Source: an uncultured virus (IMG/VR IMGVR_UViG_3300027747_004519) (Duplodnaviria; Heunggongvirae; Uroviricota; Caudoviricetes). Taken from it: DNA of 64,000 nt. Below, in pieces: positions 4,558-48,406 of the stretch (within the stretch, counting starts at the first letter, position 1; each line of letters starts with the position of its first letter). The stretch lies in the IMG/VR virus record IMGVR_UViG_3300027747_004519, one strand, 5' to 3'. The notes beneath the pieces are model-generated. The model did no database searches. It was not told the origin of the DNA and worked only from the letters and a program-made list of their open reading frames with translations. The translations under genes and the position numbers were made by a program.

Positions 4558-4560
4558 AAA

Positions 4561-4629: not shown

Positions 4630-4785
4630 ATAATCAACTGCTTTAGTATTGTTGCTGGTATACTTGCTGATTTGACGGTTGTCTTGGGCAAAAATTAAAC
4701 AGAGAATCCAGTAGGTAAATGCCCATAATCATTCCTAGAAATGTTATTGCTGACAATATTACAAAACTAGTAAGTTCATCTTTAT

Positions 4786-5016: not shown

Positions 5017-5017
5017 A

Positions 5018-7678: not shown

Positions 7679-7689
7679 TTTAATTCTCC

Positions 7690-10678: not shown

Positions 10679-10680
10679 AT

Positions 10681-11604
10681 TTAATCTAGTTTCAATGGTA
10701 ATTTTTTTGTGTAATTTCTTCGCACATATTGCTCGCAATTAAAGCAAAAAATGTTTAATTTGCCGCGAGATGCAGTTTCGAATCCTGAGCATTTTGGACA
10801 TTGCGCTTTAATATTAAATTTGAGTTTGCTGGGATCCTTGTGGCTATACATATTGCAATTTTTGCAGTACATGTAATCTTTGCCGTGTGATTTGGTATTG
10901 TGGCTAAAACACTTTGAGCATTGTAGGGCAGTTGAAGATTTAATTTTGCTGGGATCCTTGTGGCTATACTTATTGCAATCCCTGCAATGGATTTGATCTT
11001 TATTTATAAGTCTGGTATTGTGACTAGTGCATTTTGGACATTGTATTTTAGGTTTAATCCGGCTGGGGTTCCTTTGACTATGAGTATTGCAATCTTTGCA
11101 ATAGATTTGTATTCGACCGTCAAATCGGGTATTGTGACTATTGCATTTTGGACATTGCAGTGTGGTTTTAGATTTATGTTTGCTGGGATCCTTGTAATTG
11201 TACTTATTACAATCTTTGCAATATATGGAATTTTTGCCGTTTGATTTAGTATTGTGATTGGAGCATTTTGGGCATTGTATTGCAGGTTTTACTGCATGCT
11301 TTGGCTTTTCTTCCGTAATATATTTTTTGCAATCATGACAGTACATCCTAGGGTTTCCCGCGGTTGTCTCAGTATGCTTACGTGTGTGGGTACTTTGGCA
11401 ATCTGGGCAAGGTTTGCCAGGGGTAAAAGTAGGCAAACCAAGATTGCTAAGTTTTGCTGGAGGGGTAGACATCACTTGCAGATATCTCTCTCCAATGCCT
11501 GGCGCTTCATGCCCGTAGGTTTTCTCAAGATAAGCCACCATTTGAGCTATGGTTGGCTCTAGTAATAAATGTGTTTTTACGCTGCTGCGCTGTTTGGCAA
11601 CCAT
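10681..11604 (-). CDS. Protein with six InsA-like zinc-ribbon repeats
   Basis: Six CxxC..N/HT...CxxC units at about 40-aa period. Confidence 0.85.
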   Translation of the reverse strand: MVAKQRSSVKTHLLLEPTIAQMVAYLEKTYGHEAPGIGERYLQVMSTPPAKLSNLGLPTFTPGKPCPDCQSTHTRKHTETTAGNPRMYCHDCKKYITEEKPKHAVKPAIQCPKCSNHNTKSNGKNSIYCKDCNKYNYKDPSKHKSKTTLQCPKCNSHNTRFDGRIQIYCKDCNTHSQRNPSRIKPKIQCPKCTSHNTRLINKDQIHCRDCNKYSHKDPSKIKSSTALQCSKCFSHNTKSHGKDYMYCKNCNMYSHKDPSKLKFNIKAQCPKCSGFETASRGKLNIFCFNCEQYVRRNYTKKLPLKLD

Positions 11605-14600: not shown

Positions 14601-14954
14601 AGATATTTTTATTTCTTCGGGGTATTTATAAAGCAGTTGCCTGCGATGAGGCTTACCACTACTAAAAGAAACTGTATGTGCTAATGGCTCATTTAGACCG
14701 GATATCTCGCAAGCTTTAGCAAAAGCGCTTTCACCGTCCAAATCAATAGCAATCAGACCAGTTCCTAAGACTACTCCAATTGCCTCAACTTTTCTGTAAG
14801 TTTTAAATCCGTTGCTCTGATAAAGCTCAATAAATCTCTCTAGCGTATAGCCAGAATTCTGCCATCCTCCTTCACAAGGTGTTTTATTGCCCTGTACGGG
14901 GATAAACCTTGAGCCAAGGTTGAGTAATTCTAGCTGCGATCCCTCTAAAAACAT
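11577..14954 (-). CDS. Bifunctional primase-polymerase (Prim-Pol/PriCT) fused to a helicase-like P-loop domain
   Basis: IAIDLDG, GKHPHTG, GEGGRNN (PriCT), GDSGGGKST Walker A. Confidence 0.85.
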   Translation of the reverse strand: MFLEGSQLELLNLGSRFIPVQGNKTPCEGGWQNSGYTLERFIELYQSNGFKTYRKVEAIGVVLGTGLIAIDLDGESAFAKACEISGLNEPLAHTVSFSSGKPHRRQLLYKYPEEIKISSKQISCAPEELLEFRLKGMQSVIAGKHPHTGRYRWVDGCSPSEASIADCPQWIIDFLLSFNSAPTDPVSKPSLASQVYAVGAIPLSKLISKKHQEIINSGVGEGGRNNGLAALARDLIGAENRAQSQGVDYTESARELFHIASLRCNPPLPQMELKTIWRSAEKGDPNSCLDSEAWDNVLSAWTRKQMAPAHKVATVQVATVSGEIREETFPIEPHGFVVVDGRIGRIEDKLEPKYTLESDGSRTPELDAKNKIKKILVQKFKPYTNFTFDVVDILDDEYSQNPGLLVEIQEVENPKKARVLIRDTSMHRLADLTRAFSSGYGSTLMNNLKLDQLSELIAAKKEDYIKNGGKRHILSACRGQQPRSSDGKEGYWVFEDIQFTPEGEVCSSERSGVIFNKTYGEGDEIPNPKILPPNPDILGKVLRAMRRALREQNVYPALFLVASQVMGLHYQKIHRARGHVPMTNAIGDSGGGKSTASKVARALLGLHKTGSAGDCSDSALFENLKYLGGLSYTIEDPKKDPAFDETTKKIYDGEARVKRGNYQKPLSSIIVTSNHAIGRDGAAIMTRFNRIPFFRDAEIGKDQSDFDDLTMDLLDQASGAFQLLLKFGYDNTQVETIRQRIDKFLPQAHRRISPNLSILTFYALKLAPYAGLSEEQIMNYVSTVLCRVANDQDSGKSSLQDFVEKLRDLESRSLIGPWNYREIQKQNGQRIAAIKLQSVWPIFERIYQVQYDVQQIKADNEQNNGRNDGWQLLATSQREFQAWEVNNLNPDSNQKLYQSKNTRCIEIRLDKFDISPEPFEQDDPAENLEIPFSTRYEQNINAEPKMPKPVEPIDSLPEIVNPEPDITLPEIPKPEPSNAQAIEHEIDDDLVGEIIDELEAIRSSGRYGELLTKYKDNKAEFNLAWHHSAKEVQDRILALDLGEISAIKEFRPIIPRPPWLDWESGQLVIYRGRTYWLVGVAGADCEIPSLRGKNAVEILPVNGKAISQFVEILEVRSWLPNSAAA

Positions 14955-15058
14955 GTTTAAAAATAATTAGGCTTTACAGAAATAATTCACTGTAGTAAAA
15001 ATCTTACTCTATTACAGAGCAAAAAAAAAGGCCCACCTTGGGAGATGGGCAAAAAACA

Positions 15059-15391
15059 TTAAACCCGCTCTGCATCATATTGAGCCTGAGCTTTTTCTAG
15101 AGACATGCCTCTAAGCGCATACTCAAGCAGATAAGGTTTGACTTGAAGAGCTTGGGCAAACTCAACAAAAATTTCTCTAGCCTTGGCAAATTCAAAGCCA
15201 CGGGGGAAAACGTAACGTTTAATTAACACTGGCTCATCATTGTTGAAAAAGAGGCAATACTGCTTTTCAAATATCCCGAGGTGCACTTCAGTAGTGGAAT
15301 TTAATCTGACTCCACAAATAAAACTAGGGGTAAAAGCTTTAACATGAACAACTGTATTAGACGCGGGTTTGACTTTTAGTAAAGTAGGCAT
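15059..15391 (-). CDS. Hypothetical protein
   Basis: ORF divergent from the HTH gene; terminator-like hairpin at about 15020-15056. Confidence 0.65.
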   Translation of the reverse strand: MPTLLKVKPASNTVVHVKAFTPSFICGVRLNSTTEVHLGIFEKQYCLFFNNDEPVLIKRYVFPRGFEFAKAREIFVEFAQALQVKPYLLEYALRGMSLEKAQAQYDAERV

Positions 15392-17095: not shown

Positions 17096-17208
17096 CTCTA
17101 TTTTTTCAAAAATCAATCAACTTGCTGTGGAATCAATCAAAAAATCAATAAGTTTACTCGTGTTATAGTAAATTTGTTTGGTTGTTTTGATTGATGTTGG
17201 GGCTGGTA

Positions 17209-18318
17209 TTAAAGCCCCTTTTTAGATTTTGATTTAATATTCTTGTTCATCTCCATCCAAGCTTGATTATGATGGCTTTCATCAAAGAATCTTAAATAGG
17301 ATTCCCAGTGAATTTTTAAGCTGTGCCCCATCCACTTTGAGGCAATAGCGGCATCTACTCCCAATAAAGAGCAACGCACCGCATACGCGTCTCTAAAATG
17401 ATATGGACTCATTGTCCTTATTTTAAGTCGTTTTGTTTCTCTTAGAAAGAGTTTGTATATTCTAGTGCCGTAATCGTAGTTAATAAATCGTGTTTTGTAT
17501 ATCGGATCATGCTTTTCGTATAATTTCCAGCGATTTACCCAATCCCCAGGTACAGGATAAACTAACCGAGCGCCAGTTTTTGTATTGTCGCTTACCTTCA
17601 CAACATAAGGCTCTATATGCGCTCTGGAAAGATCTAATTCTATTAACTCATGACTGCGTAAACCATAGGCTGCAAGTGTGCCAAAAATCCACCTGTAATC
17701 CTCCTTGACTGAATCGACAAAATCAATTAGTTCTAAATCACTGGGAAGTTCTCGTTTGACTTTCACTTTCCAACTCACTTTTAATTGGTGTAAAGTGTTT
17801 GCTATGCCAGCAAATTTGAACAATTGAATATAGTAATTGAGCAGCATATCACGCCTAGGAGCATCTACCTGATAAGCGCTAATAATTGGAATTATGGCTT
17901 TTTCGCTTAAGGGCTCATCTGGAGCAAGTCGACTAAATGCGTTCCCATAACTAATCCCGTAAACATACTCTCGTTTAATGTTTTTTTGATGAGTAAGCCA
18001 GTAATGTTCTTCAAATTCTGCAATCCATTGAGACGCTGGCTTAGTGCCTAGTATGCCGTTTTGCAGGTAATCACCCCAGCTAAATTGATTGAGCACTAAC
18101 CTAGATTCAATCTCTTGAGCTCTAGCTAGAGCTATTTTTAATCCCTGTGGGTTGGCAGCTAAACCAGTGCTTAGCTCATATTGTCGAGGTAATACTCCCT
18201 CATTGGGTTTAGGCGGTAAAGTGCCCCTCAGATATACTCGATTATTTTTAATTCTTAATTTGATTTTGCTTAATCGCAGGTTGATTTTTATCAGTTCCTC
18301 TGTCAGCTTTTTGTCCAT
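17209..18318 (-). CDS. int: Tyrosine integrase, cyanobacterial XisA/XisC-like family
   Basis: YLRGTLPPKP arm domain; YGLRSHE, TKTGAR, YHFRDAYA, MGHS, catalytic Tyr in WESY. Confidence 0.92.
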   Translation of the reverse strand: MDKKLTEELIKINLRLSKIKLRIKNNRVYLRGTLPPKPNEGVLPRQYELSTGLAANPQGLKIALARAQEIESRLVLNQFSWGDYLQNGILGTKPASQWIAEFEEHYWLTHQKNIKREYVYGISYGNAFSRLAPDEPLSEKAIIPIISAYQVDAPRRDMLLNYYIQLFKFAGIANTLHQLKVSWKVKVKRELPSDLELIDFVDSVKEDYRWIFGTLAAYGLRSHELIELDLSRAHIEPYVVKVSDNTKTGARLVYPVPGDWVNRWKLYEKHDPIYKTRFINYDYGTRIYKLFLRETKRLKIRTMSPYHFRDAYAVRCSLLGVDAAIASKWMGHSLKIHWESYLRFFDESHHNQAWMEMNKNIKSKSKKGL

Positions 18319-18376: not shown

Positions 18377-18592
18377 ATGAAAAGTTTTACAATACAAGTA
18401 CAATGGATCGACGTGGCAACTGCTGCGCAATTATCAGGGATCAAGCAACATTTATTCTATTTGCAAATCCGCAAGGCTAAAAACTTTCCAGGACATAGCC
18501 CGTTTAAACGAGGTGAACATTGGCGCCAAGTCAGCGATAAAAAGCTTCAGATAAATATAGAAAAATGGCTGGAGGCTTTAGATAAACTGTAA
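18377..18592 (+). CDS. Excisionase-like winged-HTH protein
   Basis: Small, basic, divergent from int; WIDVATAAQLSG..FKRGEHWR. Confidence 0.6.
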   Translation: MKSFTIQVQWIDVATAAQLSGIKQHLFYLQIRKAKNFPGHSPFKRGEHWRQVSDKKLQINIEKWLEALDKL

Positions 18593-19236
18593 TGCAAGAT
18601 ATACCCAAACGCCAATATCCTTTTGTTCACCCCAGTTGGATTAGCAGCTATTTAGCTGGAGATAATCAATGTCAGCTAGCGATGTATTTTAAATCAAACT
18701 ATTTCCTCCCCAAGCGTCAATCGGATTTTAATTTGGAGGCTTACAAAATCAAACACAATACTCTGCTTGACCAGAGCGCACGTGAACTTACAGAGCAGGG
18801 CTATGACGTTTTTAGGGAGCATGAAAACGAGTACAGAGTCAACACTGAATCTGGGGTCATTCTTGCCTGCAAACCAGATATTGTAGCCAAAATGTTTGAC
18901 AAATATTTGGTGGTAGATATAAAAACTGGTAAACCCAGAGCCAAAGACATAGCACAAGTGCAATTGTATATGTGCACAATTCCTACTGTGACGCTTCACG
19001 GAATTAAAACTATACCAAGCGGACTAATAGTCTATCCTGACCATAGTTTTGAGGTTTATCCAAATTCTATTTCTACCAAATGGAAACGTTTTGTTACTAG
19101 GCTGTTAAAAACTGCAACGCAATCCGAATTACCACCAGCTAGCCCATCTTGCCATGAATGCAAATATTGCGCTGTGGCTTCGTTTTGTGATAAGAAAAGC
19201 AAATTAATACCGGAGGCTCAGGTAAGCTTTGAATAG
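18592..19236 (+). CDS. PD-(D/E)XK nuclease, Cas4-like
   Basis: KPDIV..VVDIKTG..QVQLY; Cys cluster C..CKYC....FC. Confidence 0.85.
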   Translation: MQDIPKRQYPFVHPSWISSYLAGDNQCQLAMYFKSNYFLPKRQSDFNLEAYKIKHNTLLDQSARELTEQGYDVFREHENEYRVNTESGVILACKPDIVAKMFDKYLVVDIKTGKPRAKDIAQVQLYMCTIPTVTLHGIKTIPSGLIVYPDHSFEVYPNSISTKWKRFVTRLLKTATQSELPPASPSCHECKYCAVASFCDKKSKLIPEAQVSFE

Positions 19237-25826: not shown

Positions 25827-25845
25827 GCTATACTATACACAACAC

Positions 25846-25895
25846 AACTCACCCAGCTATGTCGCAATAGGTACCTGCAAACGGTGGGTTCTTTT
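25846..25895 (+). ncRNA. Candidate small RNA, family 2, distant member
   Basis: TATACT at 25829; AACTCACC-CAG-CTATG...CTG-CAAAC-GGTGGGTT-CTTTT, same architecture as copies at 107-543. Confidence 0.5.
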
Positions 25896-25988
25896 GTGCT
25901 TATACACAAACGCACTACAGATCAATTATCCATACAGTAGATTGTACAGATATCAATACACTAAGTATATTTGCCTATAAAACAAGAT

Positions 25989-26255
25989 ATATGGAAACCT
26001 GATAAATCCGGCTGCTGGCGACAGAATATCTTATATATTCTATTTCAATACGATTACCGGTACGACACTCGATACGATTATCAATACAATATCCATACGG
26101 AAACCTGATGAATCCGGCTGCTATCGACAGAATATCTTATATATTCCCTTGTCGGTACGATTACCGGTACGATAACCCGTACAAATACCCGTACAGTATA
26201 TATACGAATTCCTGATAATTTCTGGCAAAATCGACAAAATATCTTATGTATTTCC
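25989..26255. repeat. Three about 52-bp imperfect repeats at 106-107-bp period, interspersed with about 12-bp TACGA units
   Basis: CCTGAT..CGACA(G/A)AATATCTTAT at 25998, 26104 and 26211. Confidence 0.85.
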
Positions 26256-26356
26256 CGGGTATCCGTACGTTTATCAATACGATTACCGACACATATAAGT
26301 AAAATCTCAAAATATCTAGAAATATATAAGAAAGTTTATAGAAAAATACCCAAAAT

Positions 26357-26401
26357 TAGGTATAAATACCTATTGATTTTCTAGGGTATATCGCATATTA
26401 T
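26357..26401 (+). promoter_or_regulatory. Operator palindrome TAGGTATAAATACCTA abutting a sigma70 promoter (TTGATT-17-TATTAT)
   Basis: Same operator at 37319, 41973, 59862 and 60131. Confidence 0.85.
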
Positions 26402-36947: not shown

Positions 36948-37250
36948 TTATTTCTTTAATACTGCGGTAACAAAAACGTCTGTGACGTTTCCTTCGTTGT
37001 CCTCGTAGTTTTCTATGGATTTGATCAATAGTGTCCCTTTGGAGGTTTTGTAAGTCTCTCCAACTTTTGGAAAAAGGCTAACATAGTCAAATCCAATCCC
37101 GCGCATTGGTGGCTCTTCACAAAAAACAAACCAAGTGTCGGCAGCAGCTTTAATCGACTCACCAAACCTCTCGGTGTATTTAGCAAAGCCTTTGCCAGTA
37201 AATTTGCAAAGGACGCCTTCAAAAGTAGTAGCGGTAGTAATAGCGTTCAT
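36948..37250 (-). CDS. Small orphan protein, first gene behind an operator-bearing promoter
   Basis: AGGAG site; MNAITT start shared with 41659-41901. Confidence 0.75.
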   Translation of the reverse strand: MNAITTATTFEGVLCKFTGKGFAKYTERFGESIKAAADTWFVFCEEPPMRGIGFDYVSLFPKVGETYKTSKGTLLIKSIENYEDNEGNVTDVFVTAVLKK

Positions 37251-37336
37251 GTCGTATCTCCTAATTGATTTAATTTCTTAACTTTCTATAGCTTATACGA
37301 TTTTTTGTTGGGGGTCAATAGGTATTTATACCTAAT

Positions 37337-38062
37337 TTAAGATAAATCTCGATAATAGGGAAATTCGTTGATTAATTCTTGATAAACATCTGGGGAATCG
37401 CGTTTTAATTTAGCAACTCGCCCCCAGTTTGCGCCCAAAGTACCAAGCGCCGAACCATTTCTTGTGTTAGGGTCTAAATCGTATTGACTGGGATATTCCA
37501 ACTCGAACATATTAATGTAGTGCCATATATCCTGCGTTTTCCACCATCCGACTGGGCAACAATAAGTTAATCCCCTAGCTGGATATATTAAACCTCTAGA
37601 CCTTAAAGATTCGTATCTTCCTCTAGCTTCTTGCGCGCGCAAGCCCATAGCGACGCCTTTAATATTGTTGTTTTCTTGATATTCCTCCAGAGGATCATAG
37701 AAAATTGCAGATCTATTTGAAACTTTGTTGAATTGATTAAAATCGTCTCTTTGCCTGTGTGCGGTAAACCTAGAAATGATTGGACAAAGCTCTACTGCGT
37801 TTGGCATTTTGCGCACTATTTCAATTGATTCTGCCCAGTCTCCCAAATTTCCAAATTGCCCTTTATTTACCCACACGTTGGGACAATTTGGATAAATTGT
37901 GGTGATTAGGTGGCTAGTCACAATTGAATCTTTACCACCTGAAACCGAACAATAAACTTGATAATCACAAAGCTCTAGCCACTGCTTGATTAAATCTAGA
38001 GCTTTGTTGATTTTAGGCTTGAGCCAAGGGATTTGTAAGCCAGAGCCTTTGCTAAGAGGCAA
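37337..38062 (-). CDS. cysH: CysH-like (PAPS reductase family) protein of type IV-B CRISPR-Cas
   Basis: SVSGGKDS PP-loop, GLRAQEARGR, CCPVGWWKTQDIW; follows csf3. Confidence 0.88.
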   Translation of the reverse strand: MPLSKGSGLQIPWLKPKINKALDLIKQWLELCDYQVYCSVSGGKDSIVTSHLITTIYPNCPNVWVNKGQFGNLGDWAESIEIVRKMPNAVELCPIISRFTAHRQRDDFNQFNKVSNRSAIFYDPLEEYQENNNIKGVAMGLRAQEARGRYESLRSRGLIYPARGLTYCCPVGWWKTQDIWHYINMFELEYPSQYDLDPNTRNGSALGTLGANWGRVAKLKRDSPDVYQELINEFPYYRDLS

Positions 38063-38732
38063 GACAATTCTCCTGCTTAATATTCACGCTTGGTACCCAG
38101 CAAAGAGTTGTAGATTCGTGGTGCCAGCTTGGTAATTTCCAAGCTGCTAGTTGTTTGTGCTCAGGCAATTTAGGAGTAAATAGCTCTACTGGAACCGGTC
38201 GTCTAAGCCTGTTGTCTGGTCCAATTATTGACCAATCCCCTGGAATTTCTTGAGCAGTCCAGCTAGTAACCAAGCCATATCCTTGGCTGCGTTTTTTGCC
38301 TAGGTGAGTTACGTTTCTGAGCAATCTTAAAATTGTCTCTTGCTCTCCTACCACGAACCAGTCAATTCTACTAATCGTACGCAAAAAAAGTGGCATATCG
38401 TAAGACTTGAACTGCCCTTGACTTGTATCTACCTTGGCTTTCTTTTTGCCCCAGTCTAAGTGCCTATCCTGGTAGTCCCAGCGCTTACGAAAATTGACTT
38501 GCTCTTCTTTGCTGTAAAGATAGTGTGGAGAGCTACAGTGATAAAATCCCAATTTGTTTTTTAGTAGGGGTAAATCTATCTGTGTTATCTCTTCAAGTTT
38601 TTGTGGATTGGGATCTAGTAGCCCTAGTTCTTCTCTGAGCTTATATTCAATCAATCCTTCAATCGCTGGAGAAAGGCTGTCAGTAGTGGCTAAAGGTCGT
38701 GAAAGGTGCGCTGTAATTTGTAAAGGAGTCAT
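38052..38732 (-). CDS. csf3: Type IV CRISPR Csf3 (Cas5 group)
   Basis: PLQITAHL, GQFKSYDMP, WFVVG, HLGKKRSQGYGLV, RRPVP, PSWH. Confidence 0.9.
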   Translation of the reverse strand: MTPLQITAHLSRPLATTDSLSPAIEGLIEYKLREELGLLDPNPQKLEEITQIDLPLLKNKLGFYHCSSPHYLYSKEEQVNFRKRWDYQDRHLDWGKKKAKVDTSQGQFKSYDMPLFLRTISRIDWFVVGEQETILRLLRNVTHLGKKRSQGYGLVTSWTAQEIPGDWSIIGPDNRLRRPVPVELFTPKLPEHKQLAAWKLPSWHHESTTLCWVPSVNIKQENCLAS

Positions 38733-39886
38733 CCTAGTATACCTGCAATTTCGTTTGAATTTTGGTCTAAATATTGTTCGTATTCGTGAAGATATTGAAT
38801 ATACCTAGCCTGTTGTTTGGCTGAGCGCTCAGTCAAGGTATGTTTGCCTTCTTGTACCAGCATCCAATCCCCTGTTTCACCCTCACTGGAATAATAGATT
38901 TTAGCTGCAACCTTACCACAGCCTGTATTAGCTTGCCCACCAACATAAGGTGAATCTGCCCAAGCCAATATAGCCCGAGCAATAAACCCCTCCTCGACAT
39001 CTGTGATATATCCGTCCCACCGAGAATACAAAGTTGCGCCTTGCTGTATTAACCATGAACCCATAATCATCTGATTACTCTTGGGTTTTTCCTTTTTAGT
39101 TTCTCCAGAATCAAAGAGCGTTTGTTGAACTTTGCCGGCTGATGGTAAAAGGTGCTTTACCAAATTGGGGTCATGATGAGAATCCCGTCTGGTTTTTTGT
39201 ATATAGGTAAGCCAGTGTGGGTAGGGTCTAAGTTTTTGCTCTAAAAAGGGTAGCCAATATTTTAAGGTTTCCTTGTAATCTAAACCAGTACTGGTGGATT
39301 CCTTGCCAGATAAAAAAGCTTGCACTCGTTCTGCTTCTAAAGTCCTTTTGGCGTTTTCAATTTGAGTTAAAGCTTCAATTACTTCAACTGGCAAAGCTGG
39401 CTTAAAAGTATTAAAAATTGCTAATGCGCTTTCGTAGCAGACCAGCGCGGCATCACCCACATTGAGCCTACCGCCAATCATTTGGGCATCAGTAGCACCA
39501 AAAACCCCTTTAGGTTTGGCTGTTCCTAATAAAGAAATTGGTGGTAAGAATTGCCTAATTTTTTTATCTAATTCAAGATTATTAGAAGTCCCGCCATCAA
39601 GAGCGCCCCCACAAAAAAGTGCATGATGCAAAAGTGGATTTACTGTGATTTTTAGGCGAGAGAGCATATCGTCAATTCCCACTCTGCGCAATATTCTATT
39701 TCTCAATGAATTGCCGGATAAGCAGAATATAGGAGTAGGTTCACCTTCAATATCAGTAAGTGTGACCGTCCGCAAATTGGCTTGATTGCCCACGGTCTCG
39801 CCAATATGACTCAAAGGAGCTAAAGTTTCTAAGACAAGGTGAAAAGTAATGCGATGGCGCTTATCTGGATTGTAAGTACTAAACAT
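38729..39886 (-). CDS. csf2: Type IV CRISPR Csf2 (Cas7 group)
   Basis: PLSH, SGNSLR..LRR, LFCGGAL, PPISLLG, GRLNVG, TRRD, QMI, VGG..TGCG. Confidence 0.92.
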   Translation of the reverse strand: MFSTYNPDKRHRITFHLVLETLAPLSHIGETVGNQANLRTVTLTDIEGEPTPIFCLSGNSLRNRILRRVGIDDMLSRLKITVNPLLHHALFCGGALDGGTSNNLELDKKIRQFLPPISLLGTAKPKGVFGATDAQMIGGRLNVGDAALVCYESALAIFNTFKPALPVEVIEALTQIENAKRTLEAERVQAFLSGKESTSTGLDYKETLKYWLPFLEQKLRPYPHWLTYIQKTRRDSHHDPNLVKHLLPSAGKVQQTLFDSGETKKEKPKSNQMIMGSWLIQQGATLYSRWDGYITDVEEGFIARAILAWADSPYVGGQANTGCGKVAAKIYYSSEGETGDWMLVQEGKHTLTERSAKQQARYIQYLHEYEQYLDQNSNEIAGILG

Positions 39887-40394
39887 CGAAAGTGTCTCCT
39901 TGATTTTCTTGTGTATTGTTTTGCCAATTAAGCTTCTCTTCTTCGTGCTTGAGCCTCACGTATAGAGTTACTAGTTGAGGTCTATTTAAGCAAACCTTCA
40001 GAACGTGCCTTTCAGTAATTCCGTACTCAATGCGCCATTGGTGAATCAATTGCTCCCAATCTTGATAGGCTAAAGCTTGATCTTTGTTGAATTGTTGCAA
40101 ATCACCCAAGCTGCCATCTTCTGAAATAGCAGCTCTTAGGACAACCTGATTAGGTTGAACTATCTGGCGCCAGATATTGGGCTTGAGCGTAGGGACTGAA
40201 AGCTTGAGCGAAAGATTCACTAAATAGTCACTAAGGCTTCTTGAAGGTGTGGCAGCGTTTTGTATAGAAGACTGCATGTACTCCCAAGTTTTTAGCCCGT
40301 TTGCTGCTGAACTGGTATCTCGGCACCTAAAAACCCAATAGCTTAAAGCAGCAGCTAGTGAAGTAATCCTATCGTCTGTAGCAAATCCAAGCAT
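39879..40394 (-). CDS. Type IV-B small subunit (Cas11/Csf4-like)
   Basis: Helical 171-aa protein immediately upstream of csf2. Confidence 0.7.
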   Translation of the reverse strand: MLGFATDDRITSLAAALSYWVFRCRDTSSAANGLKTWEYMQSSIQNAATPSRSLSDYLVNLSLKLSVPTLKPNIWRQIVQPNQVVLRAAISEDGSLGDLQQFNKDQALAYQDWEQLIHQWRIEYGITERHVLKVCLNRPQLVTLYVRLKHEEEKLNWQNNTQENQGDTFDV

Positions 40395-40445
40395 ATTACT
40401 AGTATGGTTTGATTGATTTATATCAATATATCAATTACTAAAAAT

Positions 40446-41096
40446 ATGAATTTTTGCTATTTGTGTGGAGCTTCTGGCGCCACTAAATCACTAAGCTTAA
40501 AAGATAGCTTTACAGCTCACTCTAGGGCCAAAGTGCCAGAATCTAAGCTTTGGTGCGATAGGTGCGCTTGGGTAATTCCCATGCGCGTCAAGTATTACAA
40601 TCCCAATACCAAAAAGGAAGGGCTTTTATTTTCTCGCACCTTTAGCTGGCTGCTTTCCAACCAGCAATCCTATCCAATTTTTGAAGGTGATCGCGTGCAT
40701 ACTTTGCCCAATAGATCGCTAATCAGGCAGTGGCTTATAAATCCACCTGAGCCACCTTTTACAATTGCTATAGCTGAAAGTGGGCAAAAACATATTCTAT
40801 TTCTAGCCCAAGAAGCTCAAGAAAAAGATAGATTCCCTGTGCTTTTCGAATTGGATTTACTGGAAATTGATCGAGCTAAATTTACAGAAAATCTAGAGCA
40901 ATTTGAATTATTAATGAGCTGGGAGCTTACGAAGACAGAAATACTCAGCGGAAACTACAAATCACAAAACCTGCTCAAGCTTCACAGCAATCCTGAATTC
41001 TGGAAAGCAGAACAAGTCCTAGCACCAATTAGAGGAACTAGAGTTTTTGAATTAATTTCACACGTCGCTTGTAATAAGCAAGCAGAGATGGACTAA
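40446..41096 (+). CDS. csf1: Type IV CRISPR Csf1 (Cas8-like), divergently transcribed
   Basis: CYLCG..SFT..CDRC; NPPEPPFTIAIAESGQKH. Confidence 0.88.
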   Translation: MNFCYLCGASGATKSLSLKDSFTAHSRAKVPESKLWCDRCAWVIPMRVKYYNPNTKKEGLLFSRTFSWLLSNQQSYPIFEGDRVHTLPNRSLIRQWLINPPEPPFTIAIAESGQKHILFLAQEAQEKDRFPVLFELDLLEIDRAKFTENLEQFELLMSWELTKTEILSGNYKSQNLLKLHSNPEFWKAEQVLAPIRGTRVFELISHVACNKQAEMD

Positions 41097-41610
41097 CTGC
41101 TATGCCTGATTTGAATTGAAACTCTCTAATGATCTCTTTATCCCGAGCGCCTCGATTTTCTCTAAGCAGTTGGCACAAGAGCTCTTGTTGCTCTTTACTA
41201 AGCAATCTTCTAGGAGCAACAATCTTTTTATCGTGAGGTTCTACCTCAAATGCGATTGATCTGACTTGTGCTAATTTACGCCTTTGGTAGCAAACTTGAT
41301 AATCTGGGTATTTTGCCCCAGTGCGCTCAAAAAGCAATTGAGCTATCTTTTTGCAGGATAGCTTAGTGTGCAACTCAAAAACCTGGCTTAATACTTGCTG
41401 CTGATCTTTGGTCAGTATTTTCTTATTACCCTGATTAGGATGTCGTCTGAGTGCCAGCGTTCCTTCTAATTCAACTTGTCTAATAAATCGATTAAGTGTG
41501 CCAGTGCTAAGCCCTAAATCGCGCTCAGCCTGCCTAATCGACTTATCGGAATCTTTCCAGTATTGGTAAAATTTCAGCTTTTGCTCAGGTGTGTAAGATT
41601 TTCCAGGCAT
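41038..41610 (-). CDS. IS630-like multi-HTH DNA-binding protein without a DDE domain
   Basis: SIRQAERDLGLSTGTLNRF plus two LxK(D/E)QQ(Q/E).L..L HTH repeats. Confidence 0.7.
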   Translation of the reverse strand: MPGKSYTPEQKLKFYQYWKDSDKSIRQAERDLGLSTGTLNRFIRQVELEGTLALRRHPNQGNKKILTKDQQQVLSQVFELHTKLSCKKIAQLLFERTGAKYPDYQVCYQRRKLAQVRSIAFEVEPHDKKIVAPRRLLSKEQQELLCQLLRENRGARDKEIIREFQFKSGIAVSPSLLAYYKRRVKLIQKL

Positions 41611-41637
41611 AAAAAAAACAGGCTAAGCTTAGCCTGT
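41611..41637 (-). terminator. Intrinsic terminator
   Basis: ACAGGCTAAGCTTAGCCTGT palindrome plus a T-run on the minus strand. Confidence 0.75.
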
Positions 41638-41658
41638 GAAAATATTTTAAATTGTAAC

Positions 41659-41901
41659 TTAAGACTCTAGCCCTTGCTGAAAAAGTTCAATAGCTTCAAT
41701 TGTGGAGGCAAGGTTTTCAACAACGTCAGCGTTTAACACTTCGTCAAACGCGCTAGCGTCTGCTGGCAAATGCTTGACAACTTCCCAGCAATTGTCTGTA
41801 TAGTAATTTGGTGAGGACACCAAGTAAACAGCCTTGTCGGTAACAAAATAGATTTCAGTTTCAGTGCTGTAAAATCCGGCTTCAGTAGTAATAGCGTTCA
41901 T
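41659..41901 (-). CDS. Small acidic orphan protein in a promoter-ORF-terminator cassette
   Basis: 80 aa, D/E-rich, MNAITT start. Confidence 0.75.
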   Translation of the reverse strand: MNAITTEAGFYSTETEIYFVTDKAVYLVSSPNYYTDNCWEVVKHLPADASAFDEVLNADVVENLASTIEAIELFQQGLES

Positions 41902-41999
41902 CTCGTATCTCCTAATTGATTGATTAATTTCTTAACTTTCTATAGCTTAAGCTATTTTTCGTTGAAGGTCAATAGGTATTTATACCTAATTTTGGAAAT

Positions 42000-42638
42000 T
42001 TAAAAAAACCAGCCTGCTCCAAAGTGTTTTCTTCCGCCCAAACCCTTTTGCTGCAAGGTTATTGAATCTTGCTCAGATAATCGAGAAGCAATCACGCCAA
42101 ATCCCAAAATTGCCCTATCATGGATCTTGAGCGAACTGACCCTAGTAAAATCCAGTCTTGCGGTAACGCCAATTGTCTCTAGCGCTTTATTGCATGTGTG
42201 CCAAAATTTATCAACCGGAGGATTGGCGTAGTCCCAAATCCCTGGTAATTTAAAAGTCACAATTCTAGCTTGCAACCTGCTTTTTGGCTCTATCTCCTTC
42301 AGTCCGGGATTAATTAATTTTATTTGGTGATTTCTGATATTTAGAATTTTACCTGCTAAAGCTTGCTGGTAATAGGCAGTGTCGCACCCTTTGGCTCTTA
42401 GCCTGAGCCTTGATCCGTCGTTGATTTTAATTAGTCCAGGTGGATCTGATTTGCCTGGGATTGAGCAGAGCAACGCATCCTCTGGTAAATCGCCAGCGAT
42501 TGCCTTGATTGCACTATATAGAGAAAATCCATTGTCTGCTGGCAAGGATGAGCCTGATACTTTAAATTCTAATTCTAGAAATTGCTCTAGCACAGAATCG
42601 GATTGTTTATTTCTTTCGGTAACTAAATTTGTAAGCAT
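42000..42638 (-). CDS. cas6: Cas6 endoribonuclease, I-MYXAN Cas6/Cmx6-like
   Basis: LPADNGFSLYSAI, SRLRLR, LAGK.L.I, L.ARIVTFK, LSEQDSI.LQ, G-loop GLGGRKHFGAGWF. Confidence 0.92.
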   Translation of the reverse strand: MLTNLVTERNKQSDSVLEQFLELEFKVSGSSLPADNGFSLYSAIKAIAGDLPEDALLCSIPGKSDPPGLIKINDGSRLRLRAKGCDTAYYQQALAGKILNIRNHQIKLINPGLKEIEPKSRLQARIVTFKLPGIWDYANPPVDKFWHTCNKALETIGVTARLDFTRVSSLKIHDRAILGFGVIASRLSEQDSITLQQKGLGGRKHFGAGWFF

Positions 42639-42640
42639 TA

Positions 42641-42775
42641 CTAGGTAAGGGTTTTGATTGATTCGTTTAGTGTTTTTAGTGCTTGAGCCATTGCCAATTT
42701 AGCCAGTTGGATGTCGACTTCGACTATCTCGCCAGCTTTGTTTTTAAGCAGTATTTTTTGCTTATTTTGTGCCAC
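42641..42775 (-). CDS. Small hypothetical protein (GTG start likely)
   Basis: GAGGAG ribosome-binding site before GTG GCA CAA. Confidence 0.45.
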   Translation of the reverse strand: MAQNKQKILLKNKAGEIVEVDIQLAKLAMAQALKTLNESIKTLT

Positions 42776-42941
42776 GGCGTAAGCTCCTCTCTTGGTTAAT
42801 CTGCTCAATTGTCCACAGTTGCAGACCTTGCTTGATTGCTTTTTGTCGCAATTCAACCAGCTCCTTTGCAAAATCTGATTGATAAGGGCTTAGCGCAGAA
42901 TTGGTTTGGTTATTTCTTTCGGGAACTAAATTTGTAAGCAT
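42762..42941 (-). CDS. 59-aa protein not in the ORF track; shares its first codons with cas6
   Basis: MLTNLVPERNNQ..FAKELVELRQKAIKQGLQLWTIEQINQERSLRRG. Confidence 0.6.
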   Translation of the reverse strand: MLTNLVPERNNQTNSALSPYQSDFAKELVELRQKAIKQGLQLWTIEQINQERSLRRGTK

Positions 42942-43280: not shown

Positions 43281-46047
43281 TAGTAATTTGCACCTCAGTA
43301 TAATTGCCGTAACCAGTGATTGAACTTTGCTGGTATATCCTAAAAAATTTATTGGCAACACTATTATTTAAATCGACTGATTGTTGAGCCTGAGTATAAA
43401 TAAAAGAATTGACATTGCTTACGTAATAGGTATTCACTAAAACCCTATTGGTTTGATTTTGAGCGTAAATCACCCAAACTTCAATTTTAAAAGCGCTGAT
43501 TTCTCCAGAAGCAAACCCAATATCAACATAGTCTAATAGACCGCCGTTTTGATATGTTCTCCTATACCAAGACAAGGTTATATCGCCGTTGCTAGCTTTA
43601 GTTTGCTTGACGCCTGTAACGTTGTATGGCGTGGCAGATTGAGCCTTATAGTTGATTGTCACAATATCTGTAATATCTGGTTCGGTTTGGTCATAAGGTA
43701 CAATTTTAAATTCTACGTTTTTGCCAATATCTCCTTGTTTTGTTGCAAGTTGAGTAACATTATTTAAAAGTATGGCGCTCTCTCCGACAACGTGAGTTCC
43801 TGTTAATCGTTCTGTCCCTTTTGCTCCTCTGATTAAATAAGAAATTTGATAAACATTATTTGGTTTAACCAGCACATCTCTAAAGGCTATAATCTCTTGC
43901 CCAATTAAAATTAAATTTTCCCCTGCCAAAAACGCGTCATCCGTGACAGATTCAAATATAGAATTTGGCGCGTAAATATCAATTCTTGTATAGGGGTCAA
44001 TTACTCCAGTTGGACCATTTGATATAGGAGTACTGTAAACAATTCCTGTAGCGCTGCTACCTTTGACCGTGATAGATTCATTAAAAGTCAAGCCATTGTC
44101 GGTAGAGACAAATACTGTTCCTGTGGAGAAATTGGAAACGCTCTCAACCGCAAAATATATTCCTAGAGGATTGTCTGAATTTTTCAATACTGGAATATCC
44201 AATACATGCAGAATGCCTTCAGTGTAAGAGCTGACATTAGAATATGGCTTAGCGACTTGGGGTGTGTAGTTGGAAACGACTTGTGTTATTGCGTAATAGT
44301 TATTATCGTTTCTAGGGTCATAACTGATTGTATTACTGTCGTTAAATCCTGGTGTTGTATCGCTTGTTTGTACTGTGGCGACTATTACTCCATGATCCCA
44401 ATCAAAAAGCGGAGACCCTTGGCTCCATAACGCTTGTGGTATTGCTAGTGGAGCATCTGGATAATTAATATAAATTGTGGGATCGCCAATAAAGCAACTG
44501 GTATTAAAAACAGGAACAGGGCTAGACTGTTGAAATTCAGGAACGTTGCTAACTTCGGGAAACCCCAGCGGGTTTTGTGAGTAACTACTATTAGGACCAA
44601 ATACTAAAGAAAAAACCCCGTCGCCTCTTTGTACTCCTTGATAAATTATTTGCAAATTGTCGGCATGCCCAACAAAGGGATGAGTAGTCCGAGTGTAGTA
44701 AACTACACTACCTGGAGGATAGGCATGCCCGTCGGACATAAAAATCCAACTGAGATTCCTAACCGCGATCCATACGAAAAAATTCTTGACAACAGAAACA
44801 ATAGGACTTAAATATTGATTGCCTTCAATCTGGCAAAGGTAATCAGCGCTCAGTAGCTTTTTAGTAATCTGCAATTGCACTACTCTTGATCCTATATTGA
44901 GCCCTATGACATCGCCTAGGTGCAACTTGGTATACCAGCAAGGCAGCAAATTTATTCCGCTAAAAGTATTGCGTTGTGAGGCTACCTCGCCAATAATCCG
45001 GTTTGCAAGCCCCTCCATAAAAGTAGGATTTGCCCAGGCTCTAGTCTGAATTGAAAGTGGATTGTTAGATTTAGCCAAGGGGTTACCTGCTGAAACTACC
45101 CACTGGCTATAGTTATCACCAAGGTTTCTAAAGCTGATTTGCACTTCGGAGGGCATCTCGCGCTTGTGTTGAATTTTCTCTTGGAACAGGTCTGGAGATT
45201 TGCCGGGGGTATTGCGAGCGCCCAGATTATTTAAAGCTAGGTTGAGCGATACAGATGGTCTGGTCTTTTGGAGCAGTTTAAAAACGCCATTTTCCTCTCT
45301 GTGAGTCAGGAAAAATAATCTACAAATCTCGTTTAAATAATCAGCGTAGGTTTCGCCTGTGCGCTGAAAAAGCAGTCCTTCAATCTGCTGTCCTGCTGGC
45401 ACATCTGATAAATCTAGCTTGTTTGTATCAAACCCTGCACTAGTAAAGATATCTTGGATTATTGACCTAATTGTGGGATTAGCTCCTCCCTTGCCGTAGA
45501 CAAGTACATCCACCTTGGGGAACCCCGCGCCATTAAAATCTGAAAGCGGATAACGATTAAAAGTGATATAGGATCTGCCTCTAAAAGCTGGTATCGCGTT
45601 ACCTTCAACAGAAGAAATTACAGAGGAAATTGGTTGATTTAGAGTCCCTAAAAAAACCTCACTATGTCGGACAAAATTAGCTGATTTTTTCTGAACAGTC
45701 TCTTTGCTGTAGACTTGCACTCCATTGCACCAAACGCACCTGAGATCGCTAATTTCTCCACCGATCATATAAGCGCAGGTCATATAGTACTTATAATCTC
45801 TTGTCCTAGCGCCAAACCCCTTACCTCCACCGCCATTTACAGTTTGGATTAAATTCTGCCCCCAGAACATTGAAAGTCCATCAATTCGGACGTGTCCATA
45901 TGATTGGGAAATTGGCGCCCCATATTCGGCAGTAGCCCTCAAAGCCAATGGGTCAAGCTTATTTTTATTTTGAATTGGAGTCAATAAATTAGCTATTAAA
46001 TTACCTACCAAGGAGGTAACAACTGGAATTACAATGGCTGTCGACAT
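43273..46047 (-). CDS. GTA-type baseplate/host-specificity tail protein (megatron-like)
   Basis: YGAPI..YGHVR, PAFRGRSYI, LIGQEIIAF..LIRGAKGTE, SWYRR. Confidence 0.85.
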   Translation of the reverse strand: MSTAIVIPVVTSLVGNLIANLLTPIQNKNKLDPLALRATAEYGAPISQSYGHVRIDGLSMFWGQNLIQTVNGGGGKGFGARTRDYKYYMTCAYMIGGEISDLRCVWCNGVQVYSKETVQKKSANFVRHSEVFLGTLNQPISSVISSVEGNAIPAFRGRSYITFNRYPLSDFNGAGFPKVDVLVYGKGGANPTIRSIIQDIFTSAGFDTNKLDLSDVPAGQQIEGLLFQRTGETYADYLNEICRLFFLTHREENGVFKLLQKTRPSVSLNLALNNLGARNTPGKSPDLFQEKIQHKREMPSEVQISFRNLGDNYSQWVVSAGNPLAKSNNPLSIQTRAWANPTFMEGLANRIIGEVASQRNTFSGINLLPCWYTKLHLGDVIGLNIGSRVVQLQITKKLLSADYLCQIEGNQYLSPIVSVVKNFFVWIAVRNLSWIFMSDGHAYPPGSVVYYTRTTHPFVGHADNLQIIYQGVQRGDGVFSLVFGPNSSYSQNPLGFPEVSNVPEFQQSSPVPVFNTSCFIGDPTIYINYPDAPLAIPQALWSQGSPLFDWDHGVIVATVQTSDTTPGFNDSNTISYDPRNDNNYYAITQVVSNYTPQVAKPYSNVSSYTEGILHVLDIPVLKNSDNPLGIYFAVESVSNFSTGTVFVSTDNGLTFNESITVKGSSATGIVYSTPISNGPTGVIDPYTRIDIYAPNSIFESVTDDAFLAGENLILIGQEIIAFRDVLVKPNNVYQISYLIRGAKGTERLTGTHVVGESAILLNNVTQLATKQGDIGKNVEFKIVPYDQTEPDITDIVTINYKAQSATPYNVTGVKQTKASNGDITLSWYRRTYQNGGLLDYVDIGFASGEISAFKIEVWVIYAQNQTNRVLVNTYYVSNVNSFIYTQAQQSVDLNNSVANKFFRIYQQSSITGYGNYTEVQITNA

Positions 46048-46441: not shown

Positions 46442-48406
46442 TTACCCCATTGAAGCAGTAGATGAATTATAAAAATCATTGGTAGGCATAAAGCGCCCTT
46501 GGGCAGGTTCACCGCCAAAATTAATATAGTTATTGTATAGGTTTTTACAAGTTTCAAATCGCTTATTACAACCGCCTCTAAGCCTTATCGTATCACCTAC
46601 AGCCGGGTCATAAAAAAGCGCATTATTTAATACTAGGATTAACAAACCAGTCTGGGTTTGTGAACCATTAAAAGCAAGGTCGTAATAGTTATCGAAAATA
46701 GCATATTCTAACCCAGCGTTCGCTCCGCTATAAAAGTAAATTGAGCCATAGGATAGGACGTGAGCCGCAATTGCTGTATCGCAATGAATAAAAAATTGAC
46801 GCCTATTATTAAAGCCATTCCCCCCTTGGATTACTTGCGCGTCCCATTGGAAATTATTAATATCTAAAGTGCAATAACTATCAGGTCTTGCTGGCACATC
46901 ACAAAAATTATATCTGCACAGAAATTGCGTTTTTACCGAGACATTTTTTCTAAGCAAGCTGGCAGCTTTGGTTAAATTCTCCATCTTGAAATAGGTATCA
47001 GTCGAGGTGATTTCTCCTACAAATCCTTCTTGCTCAACCACACAATCGCTTAGACTCGCCGGTGGATTAGTGTAGTCCACAACTGCCACAGTGATAGTTG
47101 CTTCATCAAACTTGCCAGAGGCTAGCTGCGCTTCTGTTATTTCGCTGTGAATAATCGTTTTGATCTCTTGATTGTCTACCGAGATATCTACAGTCTTTTG
47201 TACAGCGCTGGGGTCAAAAGCAGTAGATGCTTTGTACACCACACCACCAATTGTGATATCACGATCTGAAGTAGTAAAGCCATGTACCTCAGTTGTACCG
47301 ATTAAGGGCACAGTGATATTACAGACCCTAGCAAGTGTCAGCAAGGAAGCGCTGAGAATATCCGACGGGAACAGCATTGGAGAATCCTCAAGTGGATTTC
47401 CCGATGCGAACATGTACAAATCTATTGGAGCAATTTGATAGATATTATTGGTAGATTGCAAAACATAATTTAAATCTTGAGACCAAAATCTAGTCAAATA
47501 TTGATTAGTAGAATCAGTATAATTGCTGTAGTAAAAATAAGCGCCATTGCCTTTGTTGGCTAACCAGAATCCTAAGAGTGATTCAAATTGAGATTGACTA
47601 AAAGTGCGTCTTTGAGCTAAAGTAATTTTTGTCCAGGGCTGAGCAATCCTAGGTGTCCGCTTGTTGTAACCGCTGCTGAGAGTGACAATCTCTGTATCAA
47701 AATTTGTAGCAGTTTGATTGTTGGCAGTAAAATCTAAATTATTGGGAAATACTACTTTATTTTGTCCAGAGTTTGGGCTATCTACCAAGCTATCTTTAGG
47801 GTAAATAAAAGGAATTACCTTAATCTCTTTTAGTATTAGTTTATTGATTTGATAAACATCAAGGCCAGCTATTGTATATTCCAGTTCATCCCCATCAAAG
47901 GTCACAGGAACATAAAAGCGGAAATCCAAGGGGAAATAGTTAGTTGAAGCCGCAGGAGCGCTAGGCAAAACAATTTTTCCGGTATTGTAATCAATCACAC
48001 AATCAGATACGTTGTAGCCAGGTACATTAAGCACGGTCTCAGGTCTGGCAATTGCTCTAAAATGAGCGCAATTTCCCACCACATAAAGTTTACAAAGTTG
48101 GAATTGAGTTCGAAAACCATCTGGCAACGGATACAATACGCCTTGCCCGTTGCTGGCTATATAATCGCTCCTATCTTGATAAAGAAATTCAAGGTCAGAG
48201 CCTAATTTGTTTTTGAAAAAATCCAGTATTGTGGTTAATTCACCTAGAGTTAGTATTTTTCTGGCAATGTTAAAGGATCTTAAAGGGTCTTGCCATTTGA
48301 TTAACCTTTGCTCAACGCCAGAGCTGTTAATCAAAATAGTATTAGAAAAACTAATAGTAGTAGTAATTCCAGTTGCTTCTATTAAGGGAAAAATACTTTG
48401 AGGCAT
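46442..48406 (-). CDS. Fused distal-tail (two DUF2460-like) and hub (DUF2163/BR0599-like) protein
   Basis: SGVEQR..W, FYVPVTFD; second LSSGYNKR..PW; GFTTSDRDI, GCNKRFETC..NFGGEP. Confidence 0.8.
   Translation of the reverse strand: MPQSIFPLIEATGITTTISFSNTILINSSGVEQRLIKWQDPLRSFNIARKILTLGELTTILDFFKNKLGSDLEFLYQDRSDYIASNGQGVLYPLPDGFRTQFQLCKLYVVGNCAHFRAIARPETVLNVPGYNVSDCVIDYNTGKIVLPSAPAASTNYFPLDFRFYVPVTFDGDELEYTIAGLDVYQINKLILKEIKVIPFIYPKDSLVDSPNSGQNKVVFPNNLDFTANNQTATNFDTEIVTLSSGYNKRTPRIAQPWTKITLAQRRTFSQSQFESLLGFWLANKGNGAYFYYSNYTDSTNQYLTRFWSQDLNYVLQSTNNIYQIAPIDLYMFASGNPLEDSPMLFPSDILSASLLTLARVCNITVPLIGTTEVHGFTTSDRDITIGGVVYKASTAFDPSAVQKTVDISVDNQEIKTIIHSEITEAQLASGKFDEATITVAVVDYTNPPASLSDCVVEQEGFVGEITSTDTYFKMENLTKAASLLRKNVSVKTQFLCRYNFCDVPARPDSYCTLDINNFQWDAQVIQGGNGFNNRRQFFIHCDTAIAAHVLSYGSIYFYSGANAGLEYAIFDNYYDLAFNGSQTQTGLLILVLNNALFYDPAVGDTIRLRGGCNKRFETCKNLYNNYINFGGEPAQGRFMPTNDFYNSSTASMG

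Follow-up and report, generated by a model that had tools for sequence, protein, structure and literature searches.

Which RNA would a type IV-B CRISPR (short palindromic repeats, clustered and regularly interspaced) complex carry if its genes are accompanied by an intact Cas6 and by no array? This question is raised by positions 37337-42638 of a 64,000-nucleotide (nt) stretch of DNA from an uncultured virus of the Caudoviricetes (IMG/VR record IMGVR_UViG_3300027747_004519), here referred to as the window. Type IV-B is a CRISPR subtype whose RNA partner and function remain unresolved, and it is defined in three papers by the absence of both Cas6 and arrays (PMC8175902, PMC12669027, PMC11656645). 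We consider it probable that the locus belongs to a conserved phage-borne lineage of IV-B systems with Cas6, which is most likely guided by CRISPR RNAs (crRNAs) and of which the window phage is an array-less member. The window covers approximately 64 kb of a genome of approximately 80 kb, leaving approximately 15 kb unseen, and is colinear with positions 15209-78965 of the 79733-nt IMG/VR record of its closest relative (G003; 79.7 kb, 96% complete) at 82-96% identity.

Effector genes and Cas6 of the window

The six genes that the initial annotation had assigned to the system were all recovered at its coordinates with matches to the corresponding families (PADLOC, PF01507, PF09559 and TIGR02807), and all six reading frames are intact. 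A minus-strand operon begins with the type IV small subunit gene cas11 (39879-40394; PADLOC Cas11_2_IV, E 9.2e-14), continues with csf2 for the type IV Cas7 backbone subunit (38729-39886; PADLOC Csf2_0_IV, E 4.1e-38) and csf3 for the type IV Cas5 (38052-38732; PADLOC Csf3_0_IV, E 1.5e-45), and ends with a cysH-like gene for a CasCysH-type PP-loop protein (37337-38062; PF01507, E 3.7e-11). The large-subunit-like csf1, which encodes a CxxC...CxxC motif (40413-41096, plus strand; PADLOC Csf1_0_IV, E 5.4e-28), is divergent from cas11, and a cas6 gene of the Cmx6 or type I-B/MYXAN family (42000-42638, minus strand; PF09559, E 6.8e-41) lies beyond it. Translation of csf1 could start at a TTG (40413) or at an ATG (40446), of which the ATG is the likely start, as judged from the profile and the relatives, which align from there (the relatives from residue 12). 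The gap of roughly 50 bp previously given between cas11 and csf1 fits the ATG (51 nt) and not the TTG (18 nt). We regard the gene identities and the linkage of the csf genes to cas6 as near certain.

The joint presence of csf1, csf2 and csf3 identifies a type IV module, and subtype IV-B is further characterized by the cas11 small subunit and by an adjacent cysH-like gene whose product has a PP-loop and no C-terminal cysteine motif, both of which were found. In agreement with this subtype, PADLOC detected no DinG or RecD helicase, effector nuclease or cas1/cas2 among the 84 open reading frames (ORFs) of the window. At the thresholds used, cas1, cas2, cas3 and dinG were missing from the 12 ORFs of the locus and the 72 other window ORFs, with merely trivial Cas3 matches to the P-loop of PhoH. 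The features that mark subtype IV-A, namely DinG, a Csf5-type Cas6 and an adjacent array, were likewise not found in the window; Cas6 matched Cas6-named PADLOC families and no Csf5-named one, in a library that may have no Csf5 model. Two parts of the IV-B definition remain. The absence of Cas6 is contradicted by the intact Cmx6-type Cas6 located 0.9 kb from csf1, and the absence of arrays holds for the window and G003, with approximately 15 kb unseen, and fails in three other relatives described below. On its gene content the locus is type IV-B and not type IV-A, and it breaks with the 'no Cas6' rule of the subtype while its clade also breaks with the 'no array' rule.

The NCBIfam models for csf1, csf2 and csf3 match below their equivalog cut-offs (for csf3, TIGR03116 with an E-value of 9.4e-13, also under the cut-off), and the Csf proteins are therefore remote from reference type IV sequences. 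An AlphaFold (AF2) model of Csf2, built from a 38-sequence alignment, reached a predicted local distance difference test (pLDDT) score of 82 and a predicted template modelling (pTM) score of 0.79. Its best Foldseek matches are type IV-A Csf2 chains (8rc2_D, E 2.7e-14; 8rfj_D, E 2e-10), and further matches include the IV-B chain 7jhy_a (E 5.6e-6) and type III Csm3 (approximately 1e-7). The translation of the cysH-like gene contains the SGGKDS PP-loop and lacks a C-terminal cysteine motif of the ECGLH type. The same combination, with the PP-loop kept and the cysteine motif absent, is given for the CasCysH of IV-B systems in a review (PMC8175902). The cysH-like allele of the window is 51% identical to its G003 counterpart (L006 11825-12553), with the adjoining csf3 being 99% identical, which indicates an allele swap with a breakpoint at the csf3/cysH junction inside the operon.

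The Cas6 protein scores 113.8 bits against TIGR02807 (cas6_cmx6; curated cut-off 98.85) and 140.8 bits against PF09559 (cut-off 26.7), and it possesses the G-rich C-terminal loop GLGGRKHFGAGWF that characterizes the Cmx6 family. It keeps all 24 invariant columns of a 17-sequence family alignment, in which no universally conserved histidine is present. From stop-codon end to stop-codon end, csf1 and cas6 are separated by 904 nt, so that the earlier description of a Cas6 with an intact G-loop about 0.9 kb away was accurate, and the invariant columns likewise speak for the integrity of the protein. The closest solved structure is the type I-B Cas6 8fcj_B (E 1.2e-12), which we take to come from a CRISPR-associated transposon. 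Outside phages, nearly all members of the Cas6 family are from cyanobacteria (among 80 loci kept, 13 have an array within 8 kb). In a neighbour-joining tree without support values, calculated from the sequences of 6 phage proteins and 77 cellular ones, the phage proteins occupy at least three positions, each closer to cyanobacterial Cas6 than to one another, which tentatively suggests several captures of Cas6 or exchange with hosts. The first approximately 17 codons of the window cas6 (MLTNLVTERNKQ..., 42588-42638) duplicate the 5' end of the upstream ORF 42762-42941 (MLTNLVPERNNQ..., 42887-42937) and form an N-terminal extension that is missing from other Cas6 proteins; this duplication looks like an insertion scar.

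Cas6 linkage and arrays in related phages

A scan of IMG/VR with the Cas6 alignment identified the family in 21 viral contigs, and in all 21 Cas6 stands beside IV-B genes. Nineteen of these contigs contain cysH and/or csf genes detectable by tblastn, and the remaining two stop just upstream of a Coq4-like gene that elsewhere is located between cysH and cas6. The initial annotation had made its interpretation depend on csf-cas6 linkage in related phages, and this linkage is found at every viral Cas6 locus, usually in the order cas11-csf2-csf3-cysH-(Coq4-like)-cas6. A corresponding IMG/VR scan with Csf2 yielded eight contigs. Five of them, from four lineages, encode Csf2 proteins 65-100% identical to that of the window, each together with a Cmx6-type Cas6 in one of three arrangements: between csf2 and csf3 (G006), after cysH-orf255 (G004, G005 and a clade at approximately 52%), or approximately 0.5-0.9 kb beyond csf1 (window and G003). 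The other three contigs, from two lineages with Csf2 46-48% identical, are without Cas6, including a complete 86-kb genome (G418). Two contigs (L026 and L028) retain a 34-residue N-terminal stub of Cas6 exactly between cysH and csf1, which argues for loss and not for late gain. Cas6 thus belongs to the old components of the phage clade, with secondary loss in places. The earlier proposal that the window phage itself had paired a IV-B backbone with a nuclease is therefore abandoned, as the pairing is old and widespread in a large clade and the stub shows secondary loss.

The Csf2 family comprises 263 relatives at an E-value of at most 1e-5; among the 120 of these that are listed, the sole protein name is 'hypothetical protein' and the Pfam column is empty, suggesting a common cyanophage accessory module that goes unannotated. 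Neither the locus (megablast) nor Csf2 (tblastn) matched any of 50,697 GenBank phage records, and a Csf2-alignment scan of species-representative genomes gave 129 pattern matches and no confirmed relative. Relatives of the locus are thus confined to metagenomic collections.

Further genes accompany the module in some relatives. Many of them encode a protein of approximately 230-258 amino acids between cysH and cas6 (L007 12800-13576; L008 13147-13914; L152 7224-7916; and others), which in two of three tested cases shows weak similarity to Coq4 (PF05019; 24-28 bits, cut-off 22.9). This gene is not present in the window and is possibly a further accessory of the IV-B variant. L027, a complete 86-kb phage genome, contains in the region 12695-14714 (minus strand) a second, partial Csf3-like gene (PADLOC Csf3_0_IV, E 3e-26) approximately 3 kb from its main IV-B operon and directly upstream, with an overlap of 8 nt, of a 467-amino-acid ORF combining thymidylate synthase and a pterin-binding DUF4346 domain.

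We surveyed six near-complete genomes that carry the module (G003, G005, G006, G007, G008 and G009) for arrays. Small arrays, each with its own repeat, were identified far from the operon in three of the six. G005 (100% complete, with direct terminal repeats) contains five repeats and four spacers at 17193-17512, and a degenerate two-repeat mini-array directly upstream of csf1 (45940-46046), whose repeats are 69-78% identical to the main repeat by manual count. G006 (81% complete) contains eight repeats at 42019-42571 and degenerate arrays at 44.4-45.5 kb, located between phage genes, and G007 (95% complete) contains five repeats at 46613-46914. No array was found in G003 (96% complete), G008 (100% complete) or G009 (97% complete). 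An ORF over the G005 mini-array, considered as a homologue of the 120-amino-acid ORF beside csf1 in G006, proved not to be homologous; the latter ORF encodes a cupin.

The initial annotation had taken absence of an array as a premise for the system, which fails for its relatives, as small arrays occur within half of the near-complete phage genomes. It follows that the lineage appears to be guided by crRNAs and not to take up arbitrary RNA. Its arrays are small, located away from the cas operon and without adaptation genes, none of which were found on any contig within the scanned flanks, and they come and go. The G007 array lies in a stretch without counterpart in G008, flanked by stretches that are 92-97% identical between the two genomes, and the Cas6 proteins of G007 and G008 are 95% identical. 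The same enzyme and module hence persist with or without an array in cis, which is compatible with a supply of guides in trans.

The three phage repeat types (GTCACC...GGTAAC, GTTGCAAAT...GGAAAC and CTTCCAATC...TTTCAC) form weak folds and are unlike ...GATGCCGTAAGGCGTTGAGCAC, the cyanobacterial consensus beside cellular Cas6 genes. They are also dissimilar to one another, except that one end of each contains a common core, TTGG(A/T)A (TTGGTAAC, TTGGAAAC and ATTGGAAG, reverse strand), which could represent a common crRNA handle. Repeat scans of IMG/VR returned the source contigs and single chance 17-mers, and nothing else.

In the window itself, no CRISPR array was found by Tandem Repeats Finder, a repeat finder, a k-mer chain scan or pair scans (23/26 and 22/28), of which the latest gave no matches in five shuffled controls. 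Together with the ORF searches, these scans agree with the initial statement that array, cas1/cas2 and dinG are lacking. The only repeat pairs that the pair scans returned were the hairpin units of 63 nt at 95-553, the tandem of 22-nt repeats at 573-714 and, at 55351, a repeat in coding sequence. The hairpin units adjoin without spacers, which sets them apart from an array, understood as at least two direct repeats of approximately 25-40 nt with unique spacers of comparable length between them. The window gave no Rfam match and no transfer RNA, and the repeats of G005, G006 and G007 had no matches in it above chance; G003 likewise lacks these repeats. Repeat matches of 12-13 nt at position 60470 of the window and 34865 of G006 were dismissed as chance occurrences without a hairpin.

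The module could nevertheless be an ordinary cis-guided system whose small array lies within the approximately 15 kb beyond the window, which corresponds to positions 15209-78965 of the 79733-nt G003, and the arrays of G005, G006 and G007 are indeed tens of kb from their cas operons. Against this, the colinear G003 is without an array anywhere, including positions 1-15209. Furthermore, the window counterpart of the G006 array region is a 554-nt noncoding stretch beside the terminase genes (25827-26380) that contains a 107-nt unit in 2.4 copies as well as tandem repeats of 12 nt. Its conservation with G003, in which part of it is present in two copies, amounts to 92-95%; it was rejected as an array, as it contains 107-nt repeats and no repeat-spacer units. 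We consider an array in this unseen part rather improbable.

Between the array-less window and G003, the ratio of nonsynonymous to synonymous substitution rates (dN/dS) is 0.03 for csf2, 0.036 for csf3, 0.088 for csf1 and 0.11 for cas6, and 0.41 for cas11, the latter from five differences alone. The genes csf2, csf3, csf1 and cas6 are under purifying selection and thus maintained. These values bear on the disfavoured view that the locus is a decaying remnant which has lost its array and is now losing its cas genes. Such decay would agree with the missing array and with the one related lineage in which only a stub of Cas6 is left, but the six intact reading frames, the dN/dS values of 0.03-0.11 between two array-less phages and the recurrence of the array-less state in G008 and G009 make it highly improbable.

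Neighbouring elements and phage context

A gene for a helix-turn-helix (HTH) protein lies on the minus strand (41038-41610; HTH_32, E 7.9e-8) and comprises only the N-terminal domain of an IS630-like transposase (transpos_IS630, positions 9-101 of 299). It is restricted to the window and G002 and is absent from G003 and all other relatives. Neither this gene nor the small ORFs in the interval from csf1 to cas6 show conservation with the system. One of these ORFs (41659-41901, minus strand; 80 amino acids) shares its MNAITT start and upstream cassette with the small ORF 36948-37250. The cassette (41902-41999, minus strand) consists of the palindromic hairpin TAGGTATAAATACCTA, a TTGACC -35-like box and a ribosome-binding site, with a second copy at 37251-37336, a hairpin copy at approximately 26344-26376 and a further occurrence after cas6 in G003. 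Its copies precede small genes, as would befit a promoter/operator module of the phage, and it does not represent a CRISPR repeat. A repeat of approximately 105 bp after cysH and after cas6, considered as a recombination scar, was rejected as such because it is this cassette, which is also present in G003.

The hairpins at 95-553 are organized as two pairs of adjoining 63-nt units with long stems, 25-nt loops and T-runs, and have the appearance of terminator-like hairpins in pairs. One block of 140 bp with two units (95-222) has a second copy at 426-553, which is followed by 6.5 copies of the 22-nt iteron-like tandem repeat (573-714). The region 95-714 maps to the end of contig G003 and may represent an origin or a genome terminus.

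The initial annotation had suggested the hairpin RNAs as loaded RNA or as Cas6 substrates, which we no longer maintain, since they are unlike any Cas6 repeat and, among the relatives compared, are confined to the window and G003 (absent from G004, G005, G006 and L026-L028). More broadly, the complex might be a non-CRISPR ribonucleoprotein, i.e. a filament on phage or host transcripts or on the Cas6-processed hairpin RNAs that acts without guide-target pairing. The solved Mycobacterium IV-B complex is described in two papers as carrying heterogeneous non-CRISPR RNA (PMC7937560; PMC8175902), and according to one review the function of IV-B 'might not involve target recognition' (PMC11656645); the lack of an array in the window phage fits as well. 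Against it stand the narrow distribution of the hairpins, which have long stems with 25-nt loops followed by T-runs, abut the 22-nt tandems and bear no likeness to any Cas6 repeat, and the arrays of three relatives with their common repeat end, which point to guides. We therefore judge a guide-independent ribonucleoprotein quite doubtful.

The window is of phage origin and encodes a large terminase, tail proteins, ribonucleotide reductase, PhoH, a thymidylate synthase-like protein, a primase-polymerase, a sliding clamp, an integrase and an anti-repressor. Among named phages, the terminase has its best matches in Nodularia and Cylindrospermopsis phages (34-42% identity). These matches and the almost wholly cyanobacterial Cas6 family make 'temperate cyanophage' a reasonable label, which is not an identification of the host. 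Cas4-like PD-(D/E)xK nucleases are frequent in phages, and the window encodes one (18592-19236, plus strand; PADLOC Cas4, E 6.3e-14; PF01930, E 2.5e-7) adjoining the integrase gene (17209-18318). A link between this nuclease and the IV-B module is unproven.

Guide source, function and relation to known systems

In comparison with the solved IV-B complex of Mycobacterium sp. JS623 (7JHY), the window shares csf1-cas11-csf2-csf3 and a cysH-like gene on a mobile element, the absence of helicase, nuclease and adaptation genes, the fold of the Csf2 model (7jhy_a), and, with IV-B CasCysH as outlined in PMC8175902, a PP-loop protein without the C-terminal cysteine motif. It differs in that the phage lineage keeps Cas6 as an operon member and that three of six near-complete relatives have arrays, and its carriers are cyanophage-like viruses and not actinobacterial plasmids, with a remote Csf2 (E 0.084). 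Pinilla-Redondo et al. (2020) listed 12 IV-B loci that, like the window, combine the IV-B gene set with Cas6; they are reported there as rare exceptions, and the stem 'cyanobacteri' does not occur in the main text (PMC7038947). Duan et al. (2024) described Fuxivirus, a Bathyarchaeia virus, with a IV-B system comprising a cysH-like gene, a mini-array of two repeats and no adaptation module, and encoding Cas4 (PMC10848311). This system is virus-borne, and the window phage similarly encodes a Cas4-like nuclease (18592-19236), but Fuxivirus is an archaeal virus for which 'Cas6' is mentioned zero times in the article text, whereas the window phage has Cas6 and no mini-array.

Type IV-A systems, which consist of csf1-3, Cas6/Csf5, an array and DinG, resemble the phage lineage as Cas6-processed, array-guided effectors without a nuclease, and the best Foldseek matches of Csf2 are to IV-A. 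In contrast to IV-A, the window has no DinG or other helicase, contains cas11 and a cysH-like gene, and encodes a Cas6 of the Cmx6/type I-B family. Likewise, the window Cas6 is comparable to the Cas6 of type I-B/I-MYXAN systems (Cmx6, 8FCJ) in scoring above the TIGR02807 cut-off, but is located with csf genes and not with type I genes, and the phage repeats differ from the host consensus. IV-B loci with Cas6 and a viral IV-B system with a mini-array were thus known already, and the conserved phage-borne lineage of IV-B with Cas6, partly array-bearing, would be a further variant of such systems. Text searches of the literature listed no paper linking cyanophages to type IV-B or to Csf genes.

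We infer the following course of events for the lineage. The ancestral operon would have had the order cas11-csf2-csf3-cysH-...-cas6 with csf1 nearby, and thus included the Cmx6-type Cas6. Cutting by Cas6 would convert repeat-bearing transcripts into crRNAs, Csf3 would cap the repeat-derived 5' handle, Csf2 and Cas11 would form a filament along the guide, and Csf1 would complete the complex, which may then bind complementary nucleic acid of competing elements. As no nuclease or helicase is encoded, the output would consist either in blocked transcription or replication or in an activity of the ATP-using PP-loop CysH-like enzyme. Since the phage encodes an integrase and an anti-repressor, the most likely role of the module is in competition among mobile elements or, in the lysogen, in superinfection exclusion. 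Unless the unseen ~15 kb contain an array, Cas6 and the effector of the window phage most likely obtain precursor crRNAs (pre-crRNAs) in trans, with arrays of the host or of co-resident relatives as their source. CRISPR-associated transposons, which bind host crRNAs via Cas6 according to a review (PMC11656645), provide a precedent for use in trans.

Several observations weigh against a crRNA-guided function of the window locus. No array, solitary repeat or host-type repeat was found in the window or G003, and neither shows enrichment of the common handle motif (in the window, four matches versus 5.2 expected). The spacers of G005, G006 and G007 (15 + 3) had no matches in the phage genomes and loci compared, and 181 spacers from 13 cyanobacterial arrays had no convincing ones in phage genomes and loci, so that no target is known. 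The G006-type repeat was absent from 401 sampled cyanobacterial genomes, in a search that did not include the G005 and G007 repeats. In addition, the histidine of the DHGY motif is replaced by asparagine in the window Cas6, as it also is in the solved 8fcj_B; the endoribonuclease competence of this Cas6 is putative and not readable from its sequence. The nearest cellular Cas6 proteins show 44-47% identity, and recognition of host repeats by the window Cas6 therefore stays presumptive. The Csf2 sequence profile matches solved type IV Cas7 proteins marginally (E 0.03-0.08), and the IV-B label consequently rests on profiles, fold and gene content. The heterogeneous RNA of the solved IV-B complex, mentioned above, belongs to the same side of the balance.

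Host pre-crRNAs could also serve a different end. As an anti-CRISPR sponge, the phage Cas6 would divert them into nuclease-less Csf complexes and thereby starve type I-B/MYXAN interference of the host. The idea is already in print for IV-B (PMC7038947; PMC8175902), and it is compatible with the lack of arrays in the window and G003 and with the occurrence of the otherwise almost wholly cyanobacterial Cas6 family beside host arrays (13 of 80 loci, within 8 kb). Nevertheless, arrays whose repeats do not resemble the host consensus are present in half of the near-complete relatives and would be needless for a sponge; a five-gene effector with CysH is costly when set against the known anti-CRISPRs, as pointed out in PMC7038947; a complex loaded with host guides directed at phages would attach to the genome of its own phage; and the window Cas6 is just 44-47% identical to the nearest host Cas6. 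We regard a sponge as unlikely, and because relatives carry arrays, a guide-using system is more likely than a pure sponge.

Hijacking of host crRNAs may be a route for the array-less window phage within a crRNA-guided lineage. We tentatively propose that in the array-less members (the window phage, G003, G008 and G009) the phage's own Cas6 may capture pre-crRNAs of hosts or co-resident elements for the nuclease-less Csf/CysH complex, by which host memory would become a rival-excluding tool or be disarmed. If true, this capture would represent the first natural RNA partner and function for type IV-B.

The phage lineage provides natural IV-B-like operons that keep Cas6 under selection, with small arrays in about half of the near-complete genomes, which argues that at least this phage branch of IV-B is crRNA-guided. 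Its members also form matched pairs, one with an array and one without, as in G007 and G008 with their 95% identical Cas6 proteins, and this makes the guide question directly testable.

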